A stretch of DNA of 32,399 nt from an uncultured archaeon (GTDB taxonomy: Archaea; Asgardarchaeota; Thorarchaeia; Thorarchaeales; Thorarchaeaceae), in contig CAZSWP010000029.1 of assembly GCA_964610875.1 (NCBI GenBank), positions 1-32,399 on the forward strand, in the 5' to 3' direction. Below are positions 14,902 to 28,727 of the stretch, piece after piece (positions within the stretch are counted from its first letter, which is position 1; every line of letters starts with the position of its first letter). Below the pieces are notes generated by a model. That model made no database searches. It was not told where the DNA came from and worked only from the letters and a program-made list of their open reading frames with translations. A program made the translations under genes and the position numbers.

Positions 14902-15681
14902 CTATTCAAGTATTAAAACAGCATCCACGAACAACTCATAATCTTCGTCTTCATCCAGATTCTTGATGAGTACTCTTTCTACTTCATCTTCTCCTCGTAT
15001 CTCTAGTAATCTGGATTCATAGAGTATCTTTACTGATGAGTTTTGTAATTCCTCTTTCAGTTCATCTGTTGTGATGATCTCTCTCTCAGGAGTCAGAAGA
15101 ACAACTCTATCTGTTACACTGGTAAGTTCTAAGGCCGCATCAACGGACTCATCACCTGAATGGATCACCAAGGTTCGTTTTTCTTCGAATTCATCTGTGT
15201 CCATTACAGAGTTGAAGACTCCTTTGTACATGAATTCCTCTTTTCCTATAACACAATCCGGAGACCCGTCTTCAGCATCTTCAATAGGCTCTTCAAGTTC
15301 CCCACGACCTCGTCTATAATTCTTAATAGCTTCATGTAACGCATCAGCAGCTAGATTTGAACAATGCATTTTGATAGGGGGTAGCCCATCGAGTTCTGTA
15401 GCCACATCATCTCGAGTAAGTTTGAGTGCTTCGTCCAGTGTCATTCCTTTGACCATCTCAGTTGTCATACTTGTAGTGGCTATTGCCGAGCCACATCCGA
15501 ATGTGCGGAATTTCGCATCGGTGATTCTGTCATCCTCAATTTGAATGAAGACTTCCATAATATCACCACATGTGGGGTTTCCTACCTTTCCAATGGCAAC
15601 ATTGTCACCTTCGAGAATTCCTACGTTACGTGGATTTCTGAAATGATCTAATACTTTCTCTGAATACTGTGTAGATTTCAT
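14902..15681 (-). CDS. iscU: Fe-S scaffold IscU/NifU fused to a degenerate thioredoxin-reductase-like domain
   Basis: YSEKVLDHFRNPRN, GNPTCGD, FGCGSAIA, LPPIKMHCS; extra C-terminal domain of about 120 aa. Confidence 0.92.
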   Translation of the reverse strand: MKSTQYSEKVLDHFRNPRNVGILEGDNVAIGKVGNPTCGDIMEVFIQIEDDRITDAKFRTFGCGSAIATTSMTTEMVKGMTLDEALKLTRDDVATELDGLPPIKMHCSNLAADALHEAIKNYRRGRGELEEPIEDAEDGSPDCVIGKEEFMYKGVFNSVMDTDEFEEKRTLVIHSGDESVDAALELTSVTDRVVLLTPEREIITTDELKEELQNSSVKILYESRLLEIRGEDEVERVLIKNLDEDEDYELFVDAVLILE

Positions 15682-16862
15682 TATGTCATCACCCTCTTTG
15701 GTTTATCATAAATTGGAGATAAATCTCTGAGTCTGCTTACCACTTCTGGAATGGCCTCAAGAACAATCTCTATGTCTTCGTCCGAAGTGAACCTCCCCGT
15801 TGTGATCTGGAGTGAACCATGCGCTTCTTCGTGTAGCAGTCCGGTAGCTATTAGAGTACGTGAAGGTTCAAGTGTTTTGGATGTACAAGCGGAACCTGTA
15901 GATATTGCGATTCCTCTGTCTTTGAAGGACAATAGTATCGATTCACCTTCAATGCCATCAAATCTGAAGTGAGAATTATTTGGTAATCGTTGTGTTGGAT
16001 GTCCATTTAGGTAAGAATCTGGAACTGAATTTAAGACAGTTTCAATCATGTGGTCTCTATACCTCTGCAGCCGTTTCGTTTCATCCTTCATTTCATCCCT
16101 GGCGATATCAGCAGCTGCAGCCATTCCTACTATTGCAGGTATATTTTCTGTTCCTGAGCGCAGACCTCTTTCCTGTCCACCACCCAATATTATTGGATTC
16201 GCCCTGAATCCTCTTTTCATATAGAGAATTGCTGCACCTCTTGGTCCATAGATATCATTTGATGAAAGCGTCATTAGTTTGATATGGTCTTTCTCGACAT
16301 CAATTTCCATCTGACCTTCTGCAGCTACTGCGTCTGTATGGAAAGCTATTCTCCTTTCTTCAGCAAATCTGCCAATATCCTCTACATTTTGAATCGACCC
16401 AATCTCGTTGTTGGCATAACCAATCGAGATCAATAATGTATCATCTCTTATTCTACTCTCAAGTTTCTTTAGGCTAACATGACCATACTGATCCACTGGT
16501 ACTTTTGAAACTTGAAATCCCATTCTCTGCAGGTACTTTGCTAAGTTATGAAGTGATATATGCTCAATCTCAGAGATTATCAGATGATTTCCTTTTCTTC
16601 GATTTCTTTCCATGTATCCGATGAGAGCTTGATTTATTGATTCCGTGGCTGATGATGTAAAGACTATTTCATCGGGATGTGCATTAATGAATCGTGCTAT
16701 TCGTTCTCTACTCTTCTCTAAAGCTTCCGTTGCCATATCCCCTATATTATGTAATGCTGAAGGATTTCCAAAATGCTGCCTGAAATATGGCATCATTTCT
16801 TCTAGTACCCTTGGGTCCACTGGTTTCGCTGATTGATAATCCAAATACACTCTGTCTTGCAT
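15681..16862 (-). CDS. iscS: IscS/NifS-family cysteine desulfurase homologue (PLP Lys replaced by Asp)
   Basis: VYLDY, FGNPS, IEH, ANNEIG, HTDAV, SSNDIYGPRG, RSGTEN, STGSAC. ATG at 16862 avoids overlap with the upstream gene; stop overlaps the iscU ATG. Confidence 0.92.
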   Translation of the reverse strand: MQDRVYLDYQSAKPVDPRVLEEMMPYFRQHFGNPSALHNIGDMATEALEKSRERIARFINAHPDEIVFTSSATESINQALIGYMERNRRKGNHLIISEIEHISLHNLAKYLQRMGFQVSKVPVDQYGHVSLKKLESRIRDDTLLISIGYANNEIGSIQNVEDIGRFAEERRIAFHTDAVAAEGQMEIDVEKDHIKLMTLSSNDIYGPRGAAILYMKRGFRANPIILGGGQERGLRSGTENIPAIVGMAAAADIARDEMKDETKRLQRYRDHMIETVLNSVPDSYLNGHPTQRLPNNSHFRFDGIEGESILLSFKDRGIAISTGSACTSKTLEPSRTLIATGLLHEEAHGSLQITTGRFTSDEDIEIVLEAIPEVVSRLRDLSPIYDKPKRVMT

Positions 16863-16875
16863 CTTCTTTCCCCTA

Positions 16876-17229
16876 CTAGAACCACATAGTCGCATCCGCT
16901 TCTAGTGTCAAATCATTTAGCGTAGCTGCTCCAACAATCTTCAGGTCTGGATCCAACTCGACTTTATCCCAGCCAAGCATTTGCTTTGAGGCTTCACAGA
17001 CATATACTGGTATCCCCATCTCTATCGTTTTCTTTAGCATCTCAGACAGACTTGGGAATGCCCCAATCTTTATTCTCTCACCTGCGCCTGGCTTTAAAAC
17101 TCGCAATGCCTGACCTAGATAGTAGACCTTGGCTTCAATATCCATCGCTTTTGCAGCTTGTGCTAGAACTAATGGTGAGTATTGTCTCTCTGGATCTTCA
17201 CTCGTTTGTACGTAAAGTATTGAACTCAT
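16876..17229 (-). CDS. DsrE/DsrF-like sulfur-carrier family protein
   Basis: 117 aa; VYYLGQA, GIPVYVCEAS and IVGAATL pattern of the DsrE fold; lies between tusA and iscS. Confidence 0.8.
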   Translation of the reverse strand: MSSILYVQTSEDPERQYSPLVLAQAAKAMDIEAKVYYLGQALRVLKPGAGERIKIGAFPSLSEMLKKTIEMGIPVYVCEASKQMLGWDKVELDPDLKIVGAATLNDLTLEADATMWF

Positions 17230-17485: not shown

Positions 17486-17627
17486 AACTAACTATGGTTG
17501 ATTTCAAGTTTACTATAGTTAATATGCTTTATAACTCTATGGATTGCTAGAAATGAGATTGGTTGCCTCATCAGCAAGAACTTATGGAGGTTTCATTTTC
17601 TACAGAATGAATAGGGGTGGTTCTTCT

Positions 17628-18818
17628 ATGTCATCAAAAATACAGAAAGAAAAAACGATACAAGCATGTGAAATCTTGAGAGAGTTAGATATGGATATGT
17701 GGCTAGTCTGGGTCAGAGAAACCTCACAGATGGCTGATCCTGTGCTTGACTTAGTTCTTGGTGGGGATCTTGTCTGGCAATCCGCGTTGATTTTCACAAA
17801 AGATGGTCCAAAGGAGGCGATTGTTGGTAACTTTGATTCTGATGGCATTGAAGCAAAGGGAATATTCAATAGCATCACTCCATATGTCAAGGGGATAGCA
17901 GACCCACTTAGGGAGTCTTTGAAGAATCATGATCCTTCTTCTATTGGAGTTAATTATAGCGTAAATGACGTTGCTGCCGATGGACTCACCTATGGTATGT
18001 ATCAGATTCTAAAGGACTACTTGAAGGATACAAAATATACCGACCGACTTGTAAGTGCAGAAGAAGTTGTGACAAAACTTCGTGGTCGAAAGACCCCATC
18101 TGAGATTGGATATATTCAGAGAGCAGTGGATATCACTGAGGAAATCTTTCAGAAGATAGAATCAGAACTGCGTGTAGGTATGTCCGAACTCAGTATCTAC
18201 AGACTTATGCATGAGATGATGGAAACTTATGGCGTTGGAAATGCGTGGCATGCTGATCATAATCCTGCTGTTGACGCTGGACCAAACAAGCAGTTTGGAC
18301 ATGCCGGTCCAACTGAAAACAAGACAAAAGCAGGACATCTATTGCATTTTGATTTTGGTGTAAAATTCAATGGTTATTGTTCAGATATTCAACGGATGTT
18401 CTTTTTTGGTCCAGAGAACGAGGTACCGTCTGAGGTGCAGGATGCTTTTGAAGCAGTCAAAGGAGCAATCCAAGCTGCAGCCAAATTCATTGCACCCGGT
18501 AAGAAAGGTTATGAAGTTGATGCAATAGCTCGTGACTATGTTAAAGAACGAGGATATGAGGAATACCAGCACGCACTCGGGCATCAAGTGGGTCGTCATG
18601 CTCATGATGGCGGAGGTCTCTTAGGTCCACTCTGGGAGCGTTATGGAAACACACCAAAGATTGCAGTGGAAGAAAGCAATGTGTTTACCCTTGAACTCTA
18701 TGTGACAACTGAGAACTATGGTCAAGTTAGTCTGGAGGAAGATATCGTCGTTACAAAGACTGGATGTAAATTCCTTTCTAAACCTCAAGAAGCTCTAATT
18801 TGTATATCAAATACGTAG
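17628..18818 (+). CDS. Xaa-Pro aminopeptidase (M24 family)
   Basis: DFG...GYCSDIQR, HALGHQVG..HD, TLE and LEEDIVV metal ligands; GGGGTGG SD before ATG 17628. Confidence 0.9.
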   Translation: MSSKIQKEKTIQACEILRELDMDMWLVWVRETSQMADPVLDLVLGGDLVWQSALIFTKDGPKEAIVGNFDSDGIEAKGIFNSITPYVKGIADPLRESLKNHDPSSIGVNYSVNDVAADGLTYGMYQILKDYLKDTKYTDRLVSAEEVVTKLRGRKTPSEIGYIQRAVDITEEIFQKIESELRVGMSELSIYRLMHEMMETYGVGNAWHADHNPAVDAGPNKQFGHAGPTENKTKAGHLLHFDFGVKFNGYCSDIQRMFFFGPENEVPSEVQDAFEAVKGAIQAAAKFIAPGKKGYEVDAIARDYVKERGYEEYQHALGHQVGRHAHDGGGLLGPLWERYGNTPKIAVEESNVFTLELYVTTENYGQVSLEEDIVVTKTGCKFLSKPQEALICISNT

Positions 18819-19930: not shown

Positions 19931-21769
19931 CTAGTCCATATAGGGGTCTTCATCACTGAATGTGCCAAGGTAACCGAAATCTTCTAGGATTTCATCAATA
20001 CTCTGTGCAGATTCAGACCAGACTACTTTCCATTCGCCATCCTTCTCAAGAGTTAGATGCACGTCAGGAAGGTCTCCAAGCAGATTGTGATTCATTTCGA
20101 TAACATCTTGATAGGCACCAGTGAGACCTACTACAAAATATGACCCCTGTACATTTTTCAGATATCCCACGGGGATCCCATCACCCATCTCTTGTGTATT
20201 CATAGTGAGTGGACGATAATCTCTCGTGAACCATATCTCTCCTGCTCCTTTGCGATGAAATTGTGAGAACTCTCCATCTGAGTCACAAGTAATGTCTACT
20301 AGACGAATTGTAGTTTCTGGTCTAACATGAAGGTCTCTTATAGGAAATATTGGAAAATGTTGCTTCACAAGAACCCAATCGCCAATACTATTGAAAACAC
20401 TGAAATTACCTATTACTATATGATCCGGATACCAAAGCCTTTCGATGAGTGCATCTGGTTTTAACCCACTAGCTCCAAGACGTACTAAATGCTCGCGGAC
20501 AACTGACCTAAGTAATCCAATCACCGCTTCTCTACTATATAACGCTTCTAGATTATTTTCGATTCCACTATATTCTGTTTGGAATTCGCTCCAAAGGTCT
20601 ATTAATTCGTTGACTGATGTTGTAGCAGAAAATTTGTTTTTCCAATCATTATAAACAGTCTTTTCATCATCACTAAACTCGGAATCTTTTGGAAATACAG
20701 ATCTGACCTCCAGAGCTTTTATGACTATCAGTGAACTGAGAGCTGTGATTCCCCTTCCAGATTCTATCATAATATCTGGTACTACTTCATCTCCCGGTTT
20801 CTTATCAGTGACATCCTGAACGCCATCTACTAGTGCTTGTGCATAAAGTTCGAAGAGATTGGGTTGATGAGTACTTGTATAATCAATAGCTAAGCCTCCT
20901 CCGAAGTCAATCTTTCTGAGTTTATTCAGCCCCATCTCCTGTAACTCAAAAAATGCATGTGTCATGAATGTGGAAAATTTCCTGAAGTCCTCAATCGCTG
21001 TTATTTGTGAGCCCACATGTCCGAGAATTGTAGTCACACAATCAATGTGTCCAGTTTCTTTTAGAAGAACAATCACATCTAGAAGATCATGGATACTCAG
21101 ACCAAACTTTGAATCACGACCTGCTGAATGTGACCAATGCCCTCTGACTGTGAGGTATGGTTTTATTCTTAGCACGATGTTGGTCTTCTCAATAGGGAGG
21201 ATATCCACTATCAGTTTTGCCTCATGCAATGACTCCACAGAAACTGCGATGTTATATCCTTCTTCAATGAACATCTTAATGGTCCGTAGATATTCAGGAT
21301 CCTTTGCACCATTGCATATTATCAGTCTGTGTTTCCCATCATCAAGGACACTCTTGATGAGATGAAGTTCAGCTTTTGTTCCTGCTTCCAGTCCATATTG
21401 TTCATCCGAGAGCAGCACAGGAAGAACTGTGTCCTTTCGCTGGTTTACTTTAACAGGATATACAGCACTGAACTCGCCTTCGTAAGATGCTTCACTTATT
21501 GCCTTTGAAAAGGCATCTTTGATCTTCTTGATCTGATATGCTATGAGCTGCGGAATTCTGAGAGTGAAGGAGGACGTGTATCCAGTCTTCTTTCCGTTCT
21601 CAATGTGGATCATATTTGTGAGCTCTTCAAAGGAGAGAGTCTTTCCAAAAAACCTGATGACAAGTTTTCCTTCATCATCAATGTCTAGGAAATGCAAATC
21701 GTTCTTTCCAATTCCATAGACCAGTTTCGATTTTTCTATTGACCACTCCTCTTTACTCATCATTTCCAC
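19931..21769 (-). CDS. speA: Biosynthetic PLP-dependent arginine decarboxylase
   Basis: YPVKVNQ (PLP Lys), EAGTKAEL, CNGAKD, SKFGL, HVGSQ, DFGGGLAIDY, ESGR, DITCDSDG, GAYQD..HNL. Start may be ATG 21763 or 21760. Confidence 0.88.
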   Translation of the reverse strand: MEMMSKEEWSIEKSKLVYGIGKNDLHFLDIDDEGKLVIRFFGKTLSFEELTNMIHIENGKKTGYTSSFTLRIPQLIAYQIKKIKDAFSKAISEASYEGEFSAVYPVKVNQRKDTVLPVLLSDEQYGLEAGTKAELHLIKSVLDDGKHRLIICNGAKDPEYLRTIKMFIEEGYNIAVSVESLHEAKLIVDILPIEKTNIVLRIKPYLTVRGHWSHSAGRDSKFGLSIHDLLDVIVLLKETGHIDCVTTILGHVGSQITAIEDFRKFSTFMTHAFFELQEMGLNKLRKIDFGGGLAIDYTSTHQPNLFELYAQALVDGVQDVTDKKPGDEVVPDIMIESGRGITALSSLIVIKALEVRSVFPKDSEFSDDEKTVYNDWKNKFSATTSVNELIDLWSEFQTEYSGIENNLEALYSREAVIGLLRSVVREHLVRLGASGLKPDALIERLWYPDHIVIGNFSVFNSIGDWVLVKQHFPIFPIRDLHVRPETTIRLVDITCDSDGEFSQFHRKGAGEIWFTRDYRPLTMNTQEMGDGIPVGYLKNVQGSYFVVGLTGAYQDVIEMNHNLLGDLPDVHLTLEKDGEWKVVWSESAQSIDEILEDFGYLGTFSDEDPYMD

Positions 21770-21785
21770 AGTCCCTTAAACTACT

Positions 21786-23225
21786 TCACTGCGAGTCTTC
21801 GTCTTTGATTGTGTCTAGCATGCCTTGGAAGGCACGGGCTAGTTCTCCAATCTCATCGTCCTTGCTTGTATATTCAGCATCAACTTGCAGGTCTGTTGTA
21901 TCCATCTTCTGTTGCTTTATCATTGCTTCGGCATTACGCATTGCCAATCCCATCAAGTAAGAGAGTGGTTTAGTAATCTGATTGGATACTGCGACAGCTG
22001 CAATTCCTGCAAGTACAATTCCTCCAATGGTAATGAAGAGTATGAATGAGGTTGCTGCAACATTTGTGGTTTGGATCCTTGCTTCTAGTGCTGGTATTGC
22101 AGCTTGTGCCTCAGCTACTGGGACTACGATTATGCAGATGTAATCCCCTTTCTCAAGAGGTGTATATGCAAGAATGTAATCTTCACTATCCTTTTCGAAC
22201 TCAATTACTCCAGTTTCTCCAGATGTAATGTCCACAAGCTGTGCAGTATTTAGTTCCTCAAAATCAGCTAATGCAGGTAGATTTGGATCATAGAATGCAT
22301 AGTCAGCATCATCAACATCTTGGTGTGCAACAATTCCTGCATCGGATGTGATTAGTGCTGCATACCCAGTATCAAGAACTTGAACATCTAGGATCTTGTT
22401 TCGGATATTCTCCACGGAGATGTCTCCCGCGATGATGCCCATTGTTGTGCCATTCTCGAAGTAGACCGCCTTTCCTATTGATATTAGTAAGACATTGTCA
22501 ATCGGGTCATAGTATGGTCCAACATACACAATGTCTCCACCACCAGCACGGATGTCCTGATACCAGTCTTCATCGGTGCAACGGAACTGCTGTGTTGGTG
22601 AATTTCTGATAATATCTGTGTCGCCCACGATGCTCCCCGGATAATTAATCCACATGTCATTCTCAAAGCCTACATAGAGCCATCTGAATTCAGGCATCTG
22701 AGTATGAGTATATTGGAACATATAGTCTAGATTGGAAACACTTCCGAGTAGATCAGAATATGTATCATTATAGTCTTCCCAATTCAAAGAATTAGAACCA
22801 GGAATATACCAACTACTGTAGTTCCAAGACACCTGAATTCCATAGCGTTCATCATAGTATGTATCTTCAGGATAAAGACCTGCGACTTGATTTTCAAAGA
22901 AATAATCATAGTAGGTTTCTCTGGGTGCAAATGTCGAGTCTGAAGACATTATTAATTGACATTCTTCCGCTAGTGCTTCAACCATCCCTTCTGCATTGGA
23001 AAGCTTTTGATCGATTACTAGTGCATTCTTTTCAGCTGTCAATTCTATGTTTCGTTTGATTTGAACCTCAAGAGCGTCAGAACTCTGTTCTGTTGTGTAT
23101 CCTCCAATCAAGTCCATGAAGAACAACGAAACAAAACCTGTTGAAGCCAGCGATATCACTGATATTACAAGGAATGTCACAATCACATTTCTTCGGAAAC
23201 TGCCTTTCTTTTCTGTATACGCCAT
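21786..23225 (-). CDS. Membrane sensor: TM-dCache-TM-HAMP, no output domain
   Basis: TM1 at about aa 13-36; WLYVG..YPG, DWY, GPYYD, GIIAGDI, GYAALI; TM2; ITKPL...DDEIGELARAFQGM HAMP, then stop. Confidence 0.85.
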   Translation of the reverse strand: MAYTEKKGSFRRNVIVTFLVISVISLASTGFVSLFFMDLIGGYTTEQSSDALEVQIKRNIELTAEKNALVIDQKLSNAEGMVEALAEECQLIMSSDSTFAPRETYYDYFFENQVAGLYPEDTYYDERYGIQVSWNYSSWYIPGSNSLNWEDYNDTYSDLLGSVSNLDYMFQYTHTQMPEFRWLYVGFENDMWINYPGSIVGDTDIIRNSPTQQFRCTDEDWYQDIRAGGGDIVYVGPYYDPIDNVLLISIGKAVYFENGTTMGIIAGDISVENIRNKILDVQVLDTGYAALITSDAGIVAHQDVDDADYAFYDPNLPALADFEELNTAQLVDITSGETGVIEFEKDSEDYILAYTPLEKGDYICIIVVPVAEAQAAIPALEARIQTTNVAATSFILFITIGGIVLAGIAAVAVSNQITKPLSYLMGLAMRNAEAMIKQQKMDTTDLQVDAEYTSKDDEIGELARAFQGMLDTIKDEDSQ

Positions 23226-23237
23226 TCATATCCCTCC

Positions 23238-26081
23238 TCAATAATCGTCTGTTGTTCCTCCCATTTCCAATTGTGCCATTAGTACTCCAACTTCTTGGAA
23301 TGCCTTTTGGATATCCAACCTTACATCACGACTATCAACTACTGAGAAATACTGTCCTTCAGGGACTGAGTCACAGACTGATTCCAATAATTCTTCAAAT
23401 GTCATCCTTCTCCCAGTTTCTGGCGAATATACATTAGCTTCTATATGTGATTTCAGTTCCTCACCTACACCTATGATTATCAGATTCGTGTCGAGATGTT
23501 TGTCCCTAATGAAGCCCTCAATAGTTAGAGCTCCTCTTTTCTTTCGTCGGTCTTTCTCAGTGAAGATGCCTTCTAAAGCATCGAGTGAGAACTTGGATGA
23601 AGAGTTATCCTGACCATCCGTCAATGCAATGATCCATCTATGCTCACTTGATTCAATCAGATTGAGGTCTTCGAGAGCCTTCCCTAGTGCATCATAGAAT
23701 GCAGTGGAGTAGTTTGGATATCGAAGGGAGTTGAGTGCTTTGATAATGGGACTATCTTCAGGATCATCATAGTTTCTCTTCCGTGTCAGTGGTAGTAGCT
23801 GTTGGTAGGTGTTGTTGAATACAATAATACTCACTTGGTCCTGTGGGTTCACTTGGCTCTCAAGAATCTCCTTGGCCCCCATAACGGCAGCTTTGATACG
23901 GTCTTGAGCGCGCATACTTCCTGAGTAATCAATCACAAAGACAACACTCTTTCTAAATTGAATTGACCTTCGAAGTTTTTCTGCCTTTCTTCGTATCTCA
24001 TGACTAGGCTCATCTAAGTGGTCAAGAACATCTGCAAGTTTTTTCATTGATGAAACAACAAGCCAGTGTTCTTCAACACGCTCTCCAAGGTTTATCGCTG
24101 CTTGGTAAGCTGCTTTAGCCTTCCTCCAATTTCTATTTTCCTTAAAGAAGTCACCCAGATGATGATTTATGTAAGCGAGACCTCGCTCATACATCTCTTC
24201 ATCAGCAATTCTAAGTGCCTCTTCAAATTTGGACTGGGCTTGGCTTGTTCTTCCTTCTCTCATAAGAACAAGACCCATTGCGTCTAAGCGTTTTGCTAAG
24301 CCTCTATTATTGCCAAGACTTGTATCCACTGCTTCGGCATCTTCAAGAAGTGAGAGTGCCTTTGCATAGTTACCTTTGTCCATCTCCACGAGCGCCATGT
24401 TGTGATAGACTGATGCAATCCTTACCATTGCATCGGTTTCATCATCTCCGTCTACCTTTGCTTTTTCAAGCATCTTTTGAGCTAGATCCAATGCTTTCTC
24501 ATAATATTCCAATGCGTTTCCAACGTCTCCTCGCTGGCGGAACACATTCCCAATATTGAGGTACATGGTCTGGATACCAACTTCGATATTCAATCTTTTA
24601 CTGATTTCCAAGAGATTTTGATAGTTCTGCATTGCTCGGTTCAGGTCACCACGGATGAATGCTTGATTTCCAAATCTCACTGCTTCTTGGAAACTAAGAA
24701 GGGCATCCACAGTTGTACCAATCTCTTCATACATTGCACCCGAAGCAGAAACACTTCTCGTGAAATCCTGTTTCGCCATTTTCTCAACGAGTTGCGTCAT
24801 TTCTTTGATTGGTTCTACAACAGCTTTTCCTCTTCTATAAGATGCCGTTGCAACAACCCCTGCTACAATAAGCAAAACGGCTCCAAGAACAATGGTGAGA
24901 AATGTGGTTTGACCTGTAACTGCGGCCAAGATTTGGGCAGCAGGTTCGATGACCTCAGAATATGGAACCACCAATGCTAAAAGAAATCCTGTGTTGTCTA
25001 TAGTTTCATACGTCAAATACCAAGTTTCTCTATTCTTCGTGTAGGAACTCTGTCCAGAGCCTTCTACAAGGGCAGTCGTTAATATTGTTTCAAATTCTGC
25101 TCTTTCAGTTACACTGTTGGAGCTTCCTGCAAACTCAAGATCATAAATTGTTTGACCTTCCTCAGTCAAATCATTGTGTGCGAGAATATCACCATCATCT
25201 TCAAGCAGGAATGCGTAGCCACTTTCAAGGATTGAAATGTCTAAGACATTGTCTAGTATTGTCTTAAGCATGACATCTGCTGATACGACACCAATTAACG
25301 TTCCATTATCGAAATAGATTGGTCTCCCTAAAGAAATAAGGAGGCCAGTCGATGGGTCTTCATATGGACTTGTAATGGCAATGCTATCATCATTCATTGG
25401 TATGGTTGCAGCATTGTCATACCATTCTTCCTCTGGTGGATCGTAGTCTCCAGCTAGGTCTAAGAAGTACTCAAGATTGTCATAAGGATAGTTTTTGAAA
25501 AGGTGGGAATTGCAAACACCAGGGTCAAATCCCATGTACAACCAGATATAGTCGTTACTCATCTCATGAAGTGATCTAAAAATATTGTCCATATTACTGG
25601 ATACATCTAGAAAGTATTGTGTTGTAGAATCCAAATCGAAAGGGTCACTAGGAGTTGGATAATGATTTCTGGGCATGTAGTAGCAACTTACTTCAAATGA
25701 GATATCATTCGAACCATACCTCTCTACATACCCTATATCTGGTACAAGATATCCGGTATTAGCAAATTCTTCGTCCGGGTCCCAAAAGTATGAGTGTTGG
25801 GGCGTAGCGCTGATTCTGCCGTTGAAAAGGTCTTCAGCATATTTTTCCATCATGTAAACGCCATCAATATAATTCTGCATTCTTTCTTCTATGAATTGAG
25901 ATGTATCATTTGCAAGTCTTTGCAAGTTCTCAATCTCTTCATTCTCAAGAGCTGCTGAAGCATCAACAGCATTCTCATTTGATACATTGAATATCGTTGA
26001 TGCTGATAACGTCGAGATGACAAGTATTGGTATTAACGAAACTGATACGAATATTATGACTATCCTTTTGCTGATATCCAT
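23238..26081 (-). CDS. Membrane sensor: TM-dCache-TM-HAMP-TPR-vWA
   Basis: dCache (WLYMG, EWY, SPYED, GVVSADV, GYAFLL); HAMP (VVEPI...EEIG); TPRs (YLNIGNVFRQRGDVGNALEYYEKAL); vWA VVFVIDYSGSM...TAFYDA...IIALTDG; GGAGG SD. Confidence 0.88.
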   Translation of the reverse strand: MDISKRIVIIFVSVSLIPILVISTLSASTIFNVSNENAVDASAALENEEIENLQRLANDTSQFIEERMQNYIDGVYMMEKYAEDLFNGRISATPQHSYFWDPDEEFANTGYLVPDIGYVERYGSNDISFEVSCYYMPRNHYPTPSDPFDLDSTTQYFLDVSSNMDNIFRSLHEMSNDYIWLYMGFDPGVCNSHLFKNYPYDNLEYFLDLAGDYDPPEEEWYDNAATIPMNDDSIAITSPYEDPSTGLLISLGRPIYFDNGTLIGVVSADVMLKTILDNVLDISILESGYAFLLEDDGDILAHNDLTEEGQTIYDLEFAGSSNSVTERAEFETILTTALVEGSGQSSYTKNRETWYLTYETIDNTGFLLALVVPYSEVIEPAAQILAAVTGQTTFLTIVLGAVLLIVAGVVATASYRRGKAVVEPIKEMTQLVEKMAKQDFTRSVSASGAMYEEIGTTVDALLSFQEAVRFGNQAFIRGDLNRAMQNYQNLLEISKRLNIEVGIQTMYLNIGNVFRQRGDVGNALEYYEKALDLAQKMLEKAKVDGDDETDAMVRIASVYHNMALVEMDKGNYAKALSLLEDAEAVDTSLGNNRGLAKRLDAMGLVLMREGRTSQAQSKFEEALRIADEEMYERGLAYINHHLGDFFKENRNWRKAKAAYQAAINLGERVEEHWLVVSSMKKLADVLDHLDEPSHEIRRKAEKLRRSIQFRKSVVFVIDYSGSMRAQDRIKAAVMGAKEILESQVNPQDQVSIIVFNNTYQQLLPLTRKRNYDDPEDSPIIKALNSLRYPNYSTAFYDALGKALEDLNLIESSEHRWIIALTDGQDNSSSKFSLDALEGIFTEKDRRKKRGALTIEGFIRDKHLDTNLIIIGVGEELKSHIEANVYSPETGRRMTFEELLESVCDSVPEGQYFSVVDSRDVRLDIQKAFQEVGVLMAQLEMGGTTDDY

Positions 26082-27653: not shown

Positions 27654-28727
27654 TTGAGAGAAGGGTGCCGAACAGGCTTCATCTGGAACCCATCGATGGA
27701 AACGTTTGATTTTGGAACACATCATCCGGTTCGTATCGGACGGTTTCAAATGATTCGTGATTTCATTGAAGCATCGGGGTTTCTGCAAGAAGACCTGGTT
27801 AGGATCATCACTCCACGAGAATTGCCTCAGGATTTACTCTATAAGACGCATTCTATCGATTATATAGAGAGAGTCCAAAAGATTTCAAAGAATGGTGAAG
27901 GTAATATTGACATTGACACCCCTGGTTTCAAAGGTATCTATGAAAACGCTCTGATAACTTCAGGAGGGACTGTGACAGGCGTTAGGTCGATCATTGAAGG
28001 TGAGATAGATCACTTCTATTCTCCAACAGGTGGATTCCATCACGCTTTTAGAAATAAAGGGGGTGGGTTCTGTATCTTTAATGATTTAGCAGCAGCTACA
28101 ATTTTTCTAAAATCTCAAGGTTTTGAACGCATTCTTATTGCTGATTTTGATGTGCACCATGGGAATGGTACTCAAAATTACTTCTATGAGGATTCTCAGG
28201 TTATGATAATCTCATTTCATGAAGACCCAGAATGGCTCTATCCTCATGATGGAGTGATTGAAGACATTGGTGATGGACTTGGGAGAGGGCTAAATGTCAA
28301 CATGCCTTTTCCGATTGATGCTGGAGATGCGGTATACCGTTTTGCCTTCAATGAACTATTTCCTCCGTTAGTTGACTACTATTCTCCTGATTTTATTCTG
28401 TTTCTTCCAGGTTTTGATGCACATTACTTGGATCCCCTCGCTCAATTGAACTTGACAACAGATGTCATTGGATATGTCATTTCTATTGTTCATTCTGCAG
28501 CACACAAGTATGCTGAGGGCCGTTTAGCTGTAATGTCAGGTGGTGGTTATCATCCTGAATCTTTCAAATGGGGGTCTGGTTTGGTCATGTCGGAACTATC
28601 AGGAATTTCCTATGTGCCACCCCCTCAGAAGCCTCCCTTTGAGGACGATGAAGAAATATGGACTGAAGTCAGAATGAATGTGGCAAGAGTGAAAGAGATA
28701 GTATTCGATGAACTGGAAATCCAATGA
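27654..28727 (+). CDS. Histone deacetylase family protein (AcuC/acetylpolyamine deacetylase-like)
   Basis: GGFHHA, GFCIFND, DFDVHHGNGTQ, GFDAH..DPL, GGGY. Confidence 0.92.
   Translation: MREGCRTGFIWNPSMETFDFGTHHPVRIGRFQMIRDFIEASGFLQEDLVRIITPRELPQDLLYKTHSIDYIERVQKISKNGEGNIDIDTPGFKGIYENALITSGGTVTGVRSIIEGEIDHFYSPTGGFHHAFRNKGGGFCIFNDLAAATIFLKSQGFERILIADFDVHHGNGTQNYFYEDSQVMIISFHEDPEWLYPHDGVIEDIGDGLGRGLNVNMPFPIDAGDAVYRFAFNELFPPLVDYYSPDFILFLPGFDAHYLDPLAQLNLTTDVIGYVISIVHSAAHKYAEGRLAVMSGGGYHPESFKWGSGLVMSELSGISYVPPPQKPPFEDDEEIWTEVRMNVARVKEIVFDELEIQ

Follow-up and report, generated by a model that had tools for sequence, protein, structure and literature searches.

The window analysed here, a 32,399-nucleotide stretch of DNA, is contig C29 of a genome bin (3.75 Mb, 95% complete) from a Thorarchaeota (Asgard) archaeon. 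It carries on its minus strand two adjacent genes for membrane receptors, P0001 (long) and P0002 (short), followed by P0003, a gene for a SpeA-type decarboxylase. Judged from sequence, the receptor pair differs from known sensors by the exchange, within the known dCache_1 fold, of R126 of the amino-acid receptor PctA for an acid. Our preferred reading, to which we give a probability of about 0.5, is that P0001 and P0002 together may sense agmatine or polyamines.

In the amino-acid motif (AA_motif) of dCache_1 domains, the ligand carboxylate is contacted by PctA residues Y121, R126 and W128, the amino group by Y144 and D173; the R126A exchange causes a 61-fold loss of affinity and D173A abolishes binding (PMC8915833). 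The earlier note on this DNA had read both Cache domains against this motif and had described an Arg-to-Glu change in each, with the amine-binding residues retained. Its version of the motif agrees with the published one, and its peptides were recovered at the positions that it gave. In P0001, YDPPEEEWY (residues 213-221; 25419..25445, minus strand) has E218 (codon 25428-25430) at the position of PctA R126, and in P0002, FRCTDEDWY (residues 214-222; 22560..22586, minus strand) has E219 (codon 22569-22571) at the same position. The HMMER alignment of P0001 with PctA (5LTX) was gap-free over the motif (YDPPEEEWY/YDPRSRPWY, SPYED/EPYVD and SADV/GGDL), and in that of P0002 with the same structure TDEDWY was aligned to RSRPWY, also gap-free.

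Equivalents of PctA Y144, D146 and D173 were present in both proteins, as the note had said. They are Y240, D242 and D269 in P0001 (SPYED at 25356-25370 and SADV at 25272-25283, spanning 25272..25370, minus strand) and Y238, D240 and D268 in P0002 (GPYYD at 22506-22520 and AGDI at 22419-22430, spanning 22419..22520, minus strand). The aromatic residues of the carboxylate side were kept as well, as Y213 and W220 in P0001 and as F214 (PctA Y121 changed to Phe) and W221 in P0002. In the structural model of P0001 a helix (192-198) begins right after E218 (model position 191), and PctA R126 presumably also stands before a short helix. By homology to PctA, E218 and E219 would lie within the ligand pocket.

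The acidic residue was conserved among relatives of both receptors. Thorarchaeia orthologues of P0001 had E at position 126 in 18/20 cases and Q in 2/20, those of P0002 had E or D in 19/21 (the remaining two being N and Q), and 120 database homologues of P0002 nearly always showed E or D. Among the amine-side residues, D242 and D269 were invariant and Y240 was kept in at least 90% of the P0001 alignment (A1; D215, D242 and Y213 in domain numbering), and Y238, D240 and D268 were all invariant in the P0002 alignment (A2). A different picture was seen in the wider family. With the P0001 sensor as query against a search set of 1.84 billion, position 126 was R in 101, E in 22 and D in 6 of the 144 nearest 50%-identity cluster representatives that had a residue in this column, and many full-length relatives (~900 amino acids (aa), 30-40% identity to P0001) read the canonical YDPRxRxWY. 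Since R is the residue in 101 of these 144, an acid at position 126 is a minority state among the nearest relatives and not due to chance. The exchange in P0001 and P0002 is both derived and conserved. A migrated arginine (P0001 R253, P0002 K252) that replaces R126 or pairs with the Glu was considered and rejected, because R/K is equally common there in R126 relatives. We regard loss of the canonical mode of alpha-amino-acid binding in both pockets as highly probable.

Besides 20 Thorarchaeia loci, 50 further Asgard loci were examined, and motif positions were scored by profile alignments. The receptor pair was present in at least nine GTDB families of the Asgard phylum, and speA was adjacent in 39 loci. 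The speA gene lay downstream on the same strand (long receptor-short receptor-speA) in Thorarchaeia, in families f13 and f10 and in L062, upstream on the same strand (speA-long receptor-short receptor) in L061, and upstream and divergent from the long receptor in family f11 (L023-L025, L027) and family f8 (L034). Whether the linkage to speA is conserved had been left as a question by the earlier note; it is kept across Asgard archaea, in these three gene arrangements.

R126 was found in neither receptor in all 39 of the speA-linked loci. Their short receptors had E (23), D (14), N (1) or Q (1) at this position, and their long receptors mostly E. Conversely, six loci have a long receptor with R126 and flanks that can be seen (L021, L026, L040, L041, L043 and L060), and none of them has speA; at L045, which also has a long receptor of this type, the upstream side is cut off. 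The statements that speA linkage implies no R126, and that R126 implies no speA, hold in all loci judged. Genome G151 carries both types, with E in both receptors and speA adjacent at L025, and an R-type long receptor and no speA at L026, and so provides a control within one genome. When the sensors were placed on a maximum-likelihood tree, two changes were needed for the R state and two for the linkage, and the two traits changed together. We consider a real functional tie between the receptor pair and speA to be probable.

Two further sets of sequences were recorded in this survey. In family f14 the short receptor (L033:293-2290, L036:5610-7360 and L037:2700-4655) has an extra C-terminal zinc ribbon and HEAT-like repeats and reaches ~650 aa; position 126 is Q in the short and F or W in the long receptor, and the contigs end too early for adjacency to speA to be judged. 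P0134 is a long receptor of the R type from a metagenome, with a 611-aa gene upstream; in its closest genomic relatives, which belong to family f21 (50-53% identity), speA is missing at the corresponding place.

Net charge was compared between 45 long receptors of the speA-linked clade (39 with speA seen and 6 cut by contig ends) and 24 R-type long receptors. The distal module carried -15.4 in the speA-linked group and -5.5 in the R-type group, and the motif loop -6.3 and +0.2, respectively. The membrane-proximal module, in contrast, was similar in both groups (-9.9 and -8.2). The two paralogues of G151 showed the same pattern, with -14 (L025) and -6 (L026) in the distal module and -7 and -8 in the membrane-proximal one. 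In the speA-linked group basic residues were lost at P0001 positions 216 (PctA R124), 218 (R126) and 225, and acidic residues were gained at positions 146, 201, 212, 218 and 219. For the short receptor the shift was confined to the motif loop (-3.4 in the speA-linked group and -0.3 in the other). A generally acidic proteome was rejected as the cause, because the membrane-proximal module shows no such excess, which is limited to the motif loop and distal module, and because the G151 paralogues differ in the same way. A ligand module that is more negative by ~10 charges fits a cationic ligand.

Within Thorarchaeia the linkage was read in 87 genomes from 17 genera. A P0002 homologue was present in 71/87 and speA in 76/87, and a P0001-like frame of ~950 aa always stood just upstream of the P0002 homologue. 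As read from coordinates, speA begins 15-55 bp past P0002 on the same strand in ~62 genomes, with the exceptions at contig breaks. A four-gene core of P0004 (described below), P0001, P0002 and speA was intact in 19 of the 20 loci examined. The most distant of these loci (L016-L019, 36-49% identity) have kept the core and lost the neighbouring histone-deacetylase-family (HDAC), M24 peptidase and LarE genes, and in them P0002 and speA overlap by 1-4 nt. The kept core, the lost neighbours and the overlap argue together for co-transcription and for selection on the core. Synteny as plain inertia among close relatives is weakened as an explanation, both by the core of the distant loci and by the other positions and orientations of speA in Asgard archaea. 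In the closed genome G058 a long receptor broken by a stop codon (L056, C1:192000-204000) lies ~180 kb from an intact P0002-speA pair (L007, C1:377500-389000).

The two receptors of the window were the only dCache_1 matches in the genome, and both passed the Pfam cut-off for this domain (PF02743, 45 bits) with 69.7 bits for P0001 and 61.3 bits for P0002. P0001 (947 aa; 23238..26081, minus strand) consists of a first transmembrane segment, an extracellular dCache_1 domain, a second transmembrane segment (392-414), a TPR region (TPR_12) and a VWA domain (VWA_2; 23238-23950, minus strand). Its double-Cache sensor (residues 30-392; 24906..25994, minus strand) was modelled by AlphaFold2 (model m300c05275baf) with a predicted local distance difference test (pLDDT) score of 88.5. 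P0002 (479 aa; 21786..23225, minus strand) has transmembrane segments at 14-37 and 389-414 around its dCache_1 domain, followed by a HAMP domain (26.3 bits), and its AlphaFold2 sensor model reached a pLDDT of 87.1. Fold searches matched the models of both sensors to double-Cache structures. As both Cache domains are flanked by two hydrophobic segments, they are expected to be extracellular. By Pfam, P0001 has no enzymatic output domain and P0002 no output domain, and the domain scan of the two proteins returned no kinase, cyclase or methyl-accepting chemotaxis protein (MCP) domain.

P0002 always adjoined a long receptor in the loci surveyed. When the two sensor domains of the window were predicted as a heterodimer, the interface score ipSAE (interaction prediction score from aligned errors) was 0.86, and that of the best control was 0.01, homodimers lying outside this comparison. 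The ipSAE mark used is reached by 58 of 80 solved complexes and by 2 of 110 mismatched pairs. Separate runs agreed in at least 97% of contacts with a partner pLDDT of at least 86, and the predicted interface runs along helix 1 and the C-terminal helix. The heterodimer is thus a supported model, with the qualification that its score may reflect the likeness of the pair to solved dCache dimers.

The decarboxylase P0003 (612 aa; 19931..21769, minus strand) begins 16 bp downstream of P0002 and belongs to the SpeA type of enzymes that depend on pyridoxal 5'-phosphate (PLP). The earlier note had placed both receptors directly upstream of it, which is correct for P0002, but P0001 lies one gene further up. 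The best solved match of P0003 was C. jejuni SpeA (3NZP, E 1.2e-60), with the enzymes of V. vulnificus and E. coli also among the best, and P0003 aligned with all three over its whole length. In the alignment with 3NZP (residues 43-600) the PLP lysine motif YPVKVNQ and the active-site motifs HVGSQ, GGGLA, ESGR and CDSDGE of fold-type III decarboxylases were kept. No second speA match and no pyruvoyl arginine decarboxylase turned up in this genome; the operon is therefore the only detected agmatine route of the cell. In archaea, agmatine is required for tRNA-Ile agmatidine as well as for polyamines. Elsewhere in the genome lie an agmatinase/arginase-family gene and a weak spermidine-synthase-like match. 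The f13 loci (L022:14600-16018; L029-L031, L035, L049 and L050) have a second PLP decarboxylase of ~480 aa one to two genes after speA, which resembles LysA but, with 184 bits, stays below the cut-off of 298 bits.

On the preferred reading, P0001 and P0002 would make up one extracellular double-Cache receptor, each contributing half. In each half, the PYxD Tyr and Asp, together with the last-strand Asp, would hold the ammonium group of the ligand, with Glu or Asp in place of the Arg that otherwise grips the carboxylate. Such a pocket would reject alpha-amino acids in favour of cationic amines that lack a carboxylate and, ideally, bear a second positive group. The first candidates would be agmatine, which is arginine minus its carboxylate, and its products putrescine and spermidine. 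The most likely role would be to match the synthesis of agmatine and polyamines to the amines outside the cell. Because no kinase is present, we propose that the signal may pass from the receptor to speA by way of the TPR-VWA arm of P0001 and the propeller/winged-helix protein P0004.

The closest solved sequences to the two sensors are those of the amino-acid class dCache_1AA (PctA/PctB/PctC, Mlp24/Mlp37, Tlp3 and CtaA; Gumerov et al. 2022, PMC8915833), which have the same fold. Expectation values (E) were 1e-10 with a single sequence and 1e-15 to 1e-17 with a family profile, and VIA-align Z-scores of the P0001 sensor to structures of this class were 17-19 (18-19 for PctA/PctC/Mlp24). W128, Y129, Y144, D146 and D173 are shared, with gap-free spacing of the motif. 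P0001 and P0002 depart from this class by Glu at the R126 position and, in P0002, by Phe for Y121, and also by the much greater acidity of the motif loop and distal module. The sensor, at ~360 aa, is larger and contains an insert behind helix 1. The output differs as well, being TPR-VWA or HAMP alone and not a chemoreceptor, kinase or cyclase. On the evidence of the motif, P0001 and P0002 are relatives and not members of dCache_1AA, as the defining Arg (or Lys) is missing.

The polyamine/histamine chemoreceptors McpU of P. putida (6F9G) and TlpQ of P. aeruginosa (6FU4) share with the pair the dCache_1 domain, the PYxD Tyr/Asp and the last-strand Asp, a likeness matched by motif and not by alignment. 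In these Pseudomonas proteins the primary amine is held by the equivalent Tyr/Asp/Asp, and Glu and Asp bind the other nitrogens (PMC6234866, PMC8231116); TlpQ makes contacts through Y208/D210/D239, has a further acidic residue, E170, and a highly negative pocket (PMC6234866), and binds agmatine, putrescine, cadaverine and spermidine (PMC6234866, PMC8231116). The polyamine-binding class has been described as yet uncharacterised (Cerna-Vargas et al. 2023, PMC10589655). McpU and TlpQ were absent from the PDB sequence matches at E<=10, an absence that does not exclude membership, and they were not among the 50 entries listed per fold search (Foldseek, VIA-align). A tie to this polyamine class would rest on shared chemistry and not on detectable homology.

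The amine-binding offshoot of the amino-acid class, dCache_1AM (PctD, PacA, McpX and M. mazei mmHK1S-Z3, 3LIB; PMC10589655), does not conserve the R126 position. Its WY aromatic pair (PctD F188/Y189) and final Asp (D235), which have been equated with PctA W128/Y129 and D173 (PMC10589655), are present in P0001 and P0002. The best solved sequence matches of P0002 were 3LI8 and 3LIB (E 4e-9 and 6e-9); 3LIB has Ser at the R126 position and not an acid. The amine (AM) motif was derived from binding of quaternary and small amines, with a cation-pi aromatic residue (PctD W155), and includes a helical insert with an Arg-Asp pair (R103/D133), and among archaea it has been reported only in Halobacteriota (PMC10589655). 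PctD (7PSG) matched weakly (E 0.014 with a single sequence, 1.3e-6 with a profile) and only downstream of the AM insert region.

The highest fold score of the P0001 sensor was obtained with eukaryotic alpha2delta (VIA-align Z ~20, 20-21% identity), to which ~300 residues were aligned, compared with 220-250 for bacterial Cache domains. The related profile match to CACHD1 (E 5e-15) is to a protein that, like P0001, combines Cache and VWA in one chain. However, the VWA domain of alpha2delta is extracellular and interleaved with Cache, and its AA motif is intact, whereas the VWA domain of P0001 is cytoplasmic and follows the second transmembrane segment and the TPR region.

Several observations weigh against an amine-sensing pair that is tied to speA. 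Some speA-linked long receptors are not acidic at position 126 and have Q, F, Y or S there. The distant short receptors of families f22 and f23 have D or E at position 126 with no speA nearby, so that the statement that an acidic residue implies speA does not hold. There are only two independent co-transitions, too few for a sign test to become significant, and related genomes are not independent. In both sequence and fold, the domains resemble amino-acid receptors more closely than they do McpU/TlpQ or PctD. P0003 itself falls below the curated cut-offs (355.4 against 369 bits for NF003763 and 333 against 624 bits for TIGR01273); SpeA is still by far its best family, LysA being next with 94 bits, and the Asgard SpeA homologues tested score like P0003, under the equivalog cut-offs. 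Several Thorarchaeia genomes keep a speA, more divergent in sequence, without the receptors, and in genome G076 a decayed P0002 remnant with stop codons (C7:15034-15339) stands beside an intact speA. As speA is kept where the receptors are lost or decayed, the receptors are dispensable for speA, and they look like an accessory control layer and not a requirement for the enzyme. Finally, SpeA is cytoplasmic and the sensors are extracellular, so the circuit suggested by the earlier note, in which the cell makes and senses the same amine, needs export of the product. It is at least as likely that the pair senses amines from outside to tune synthesis as that it senses the cell's own product.

Some of these observations could also be expected if the receptors bound something else (a basic peptide, a different metabolite or a partner protein, for instance) and speA were a passenger, for example through shared growth-phase control. 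The acidic residues of f22 and f23 in loci that lack a nearby speA, the genomes that retain speA after losing the receptors, the small number of co-transitions and the variation (E, Q, F, Y, S) of the long receptor at position 126 among linked loci all point this way. A passenger would hardly account for a linkage that is kept through three arrangements and down to ~30% identity, that is found at none of the R126 loci whose flanks can be seen, and that extends to translational overlap of P0002 and speA in distant Thorarchaeia, and we regard this explanation as possible but rather unlikely. The acidity of the pocket could also serve to sense an inorganic cation (Mg2+, Ca2+) or pH, with synthesis of agmatine and polyamines co-regulated as a compensating polycation or proton-consuming response. 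Polyamines and Mg2+ can replace each other on nucleic acids. Three to four carboxylates converge at the site (E218 or E219, the PYxD Asp and the last-strand Asp), many of the ~10 negative charges gained lie outside the motif (positions 146, 201 and 212), and dCache_1 domains responsive to inorganic ions are cited in PMC10589655. However, the Tyr/Asp/Asp triad, which holds a primary amine in PctA, Tlp3, TlpQ and McpU, is kept, acidification of P0002 is limited to the motif loop, and a link to speA and not to cation transporters fits an organic amine better, all of which makes cation or pH sensing unlikely.

Sensing of alpha-amino acids such as arginine or lysine could have been retained if another basic residue held the carboxylate. 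Candidates for this residue exist, as the motif is YDPRGE[DY]WY in many P0002 homologues, with an Arg kept at the position of PctA R124, and both families have a conserved R/K after the PYxD strand, at the PctA T158 position. The latter is just as common in R126 relatives, so that no compensating swap is seen, and R124 is also lost in the speA-linked long receptors. Moreover, the added Glu would repel a carboxylate, and single mismatches reduce or abolish binding both in the AA motif (PMC8915833) and, according to PMC10589655, in the AM motif. We consider retained amino-acid sensing to be very unlikely. Still less probable, in our judgement, is that one or both pockets have ceased to be ligand sites and that the proteins act only as scaffolds. 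The lack of an enzymatic output domain is compatible with scaffolds, and the long-receptor pocket in f22 and f23 is clearly degenerate; in the speA-linked clade, though, sequences at 40-70% identity show little or no variation in the triad and the acidic residue, indicating selection on the site. The distant f22 and f23 pairs (L063-L069, ~25% identity) are followed by a larger propeller protein (~620 aa in f22); their long receptors have lost Y144 and D146 and have Glu for D173, and their short receptors keep the triad.

The receptors and the decarboxylase lie within a run of five consecutive minus-strand genes, P0004-P0001-P0002-P0003-P0005, separated by gaps of 52, 12, 16 and 63 bp. P0004 (26134..27579, minus strand), the first gene of the four-gene core, encodes a beta-propeller with a zinc ribbon (Pfam) and a winged-helix-like tail. 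It adjoined the receptor pair in 19/20 Thorarchaeia loci, and weaker homologues adjoined both speA-linked and R-type pairs in other Asgard families. P0005 (19073..19867, minus strand) encodes a LarE-like ATP-dependent sulfur transferase (NCBIfam TIGR00268, 233 bits). A homologue follows speA in many close Thorarchaeia loci and not in the distant loci L016-L019, and P0005, a frequent though not constant neighbour downstream, probably lies outside the unit. The histone-deacetylase-family gene (27654-28727, plus strand) is divergent from P0004, and the M24 peptidase gene (17544-18818, plus strand) lies beyond LarE; both are kept in close Thorarchaeia and not in distant ones. A DsrE-IscS-IscU (NifU_N) cluster lies downstream of the region (14902-17229, minus strand). 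Rfam and tRNA scans of the window gave no matches.

Asgard archaea are the closest prokaryotic relatives of eukaryotes. To our knowledge, the signals are unknown for nearly all prokaryotic receptors and for essentially all Asgard ones, and we found no paper on this module in the literature on Asgard dCache domains, arginine decarboxylase or polyamine sensors. At its most far-reaching, the system could be the first Asgard receptor system with a predictable ligand, a kinase-free heterodimeric Cache receptor with TPR-VWA output and a propeller/winged-helix partner, which reads external agmatine or polyamines and sets the sole agmatine supply of the cell; we hold this to be a long shot. Within that reading agmatine may even be a self-produced community signal, and the eukaryotic alpha2delta/CACHD1 Cache-VWA proteins could, though this too is doubtful, find their closest prokaryotic likeness in this sensor. 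The preferred reading makes a testable prediction, namely that the two sensor domains of ~360 residues bind decarboxylated or polycationic amines and not amino acids, and the R126 paralogue in the G151 genome (L026) offers a natural control. If the prediction is true, an acid in place of the Arg, a retained amine triad and an acidic loop would together form a sequence signature for agmatine or polyamine Cache domains, and a kinase-free receptor would be tied to the single gene behind the agmatine supply.

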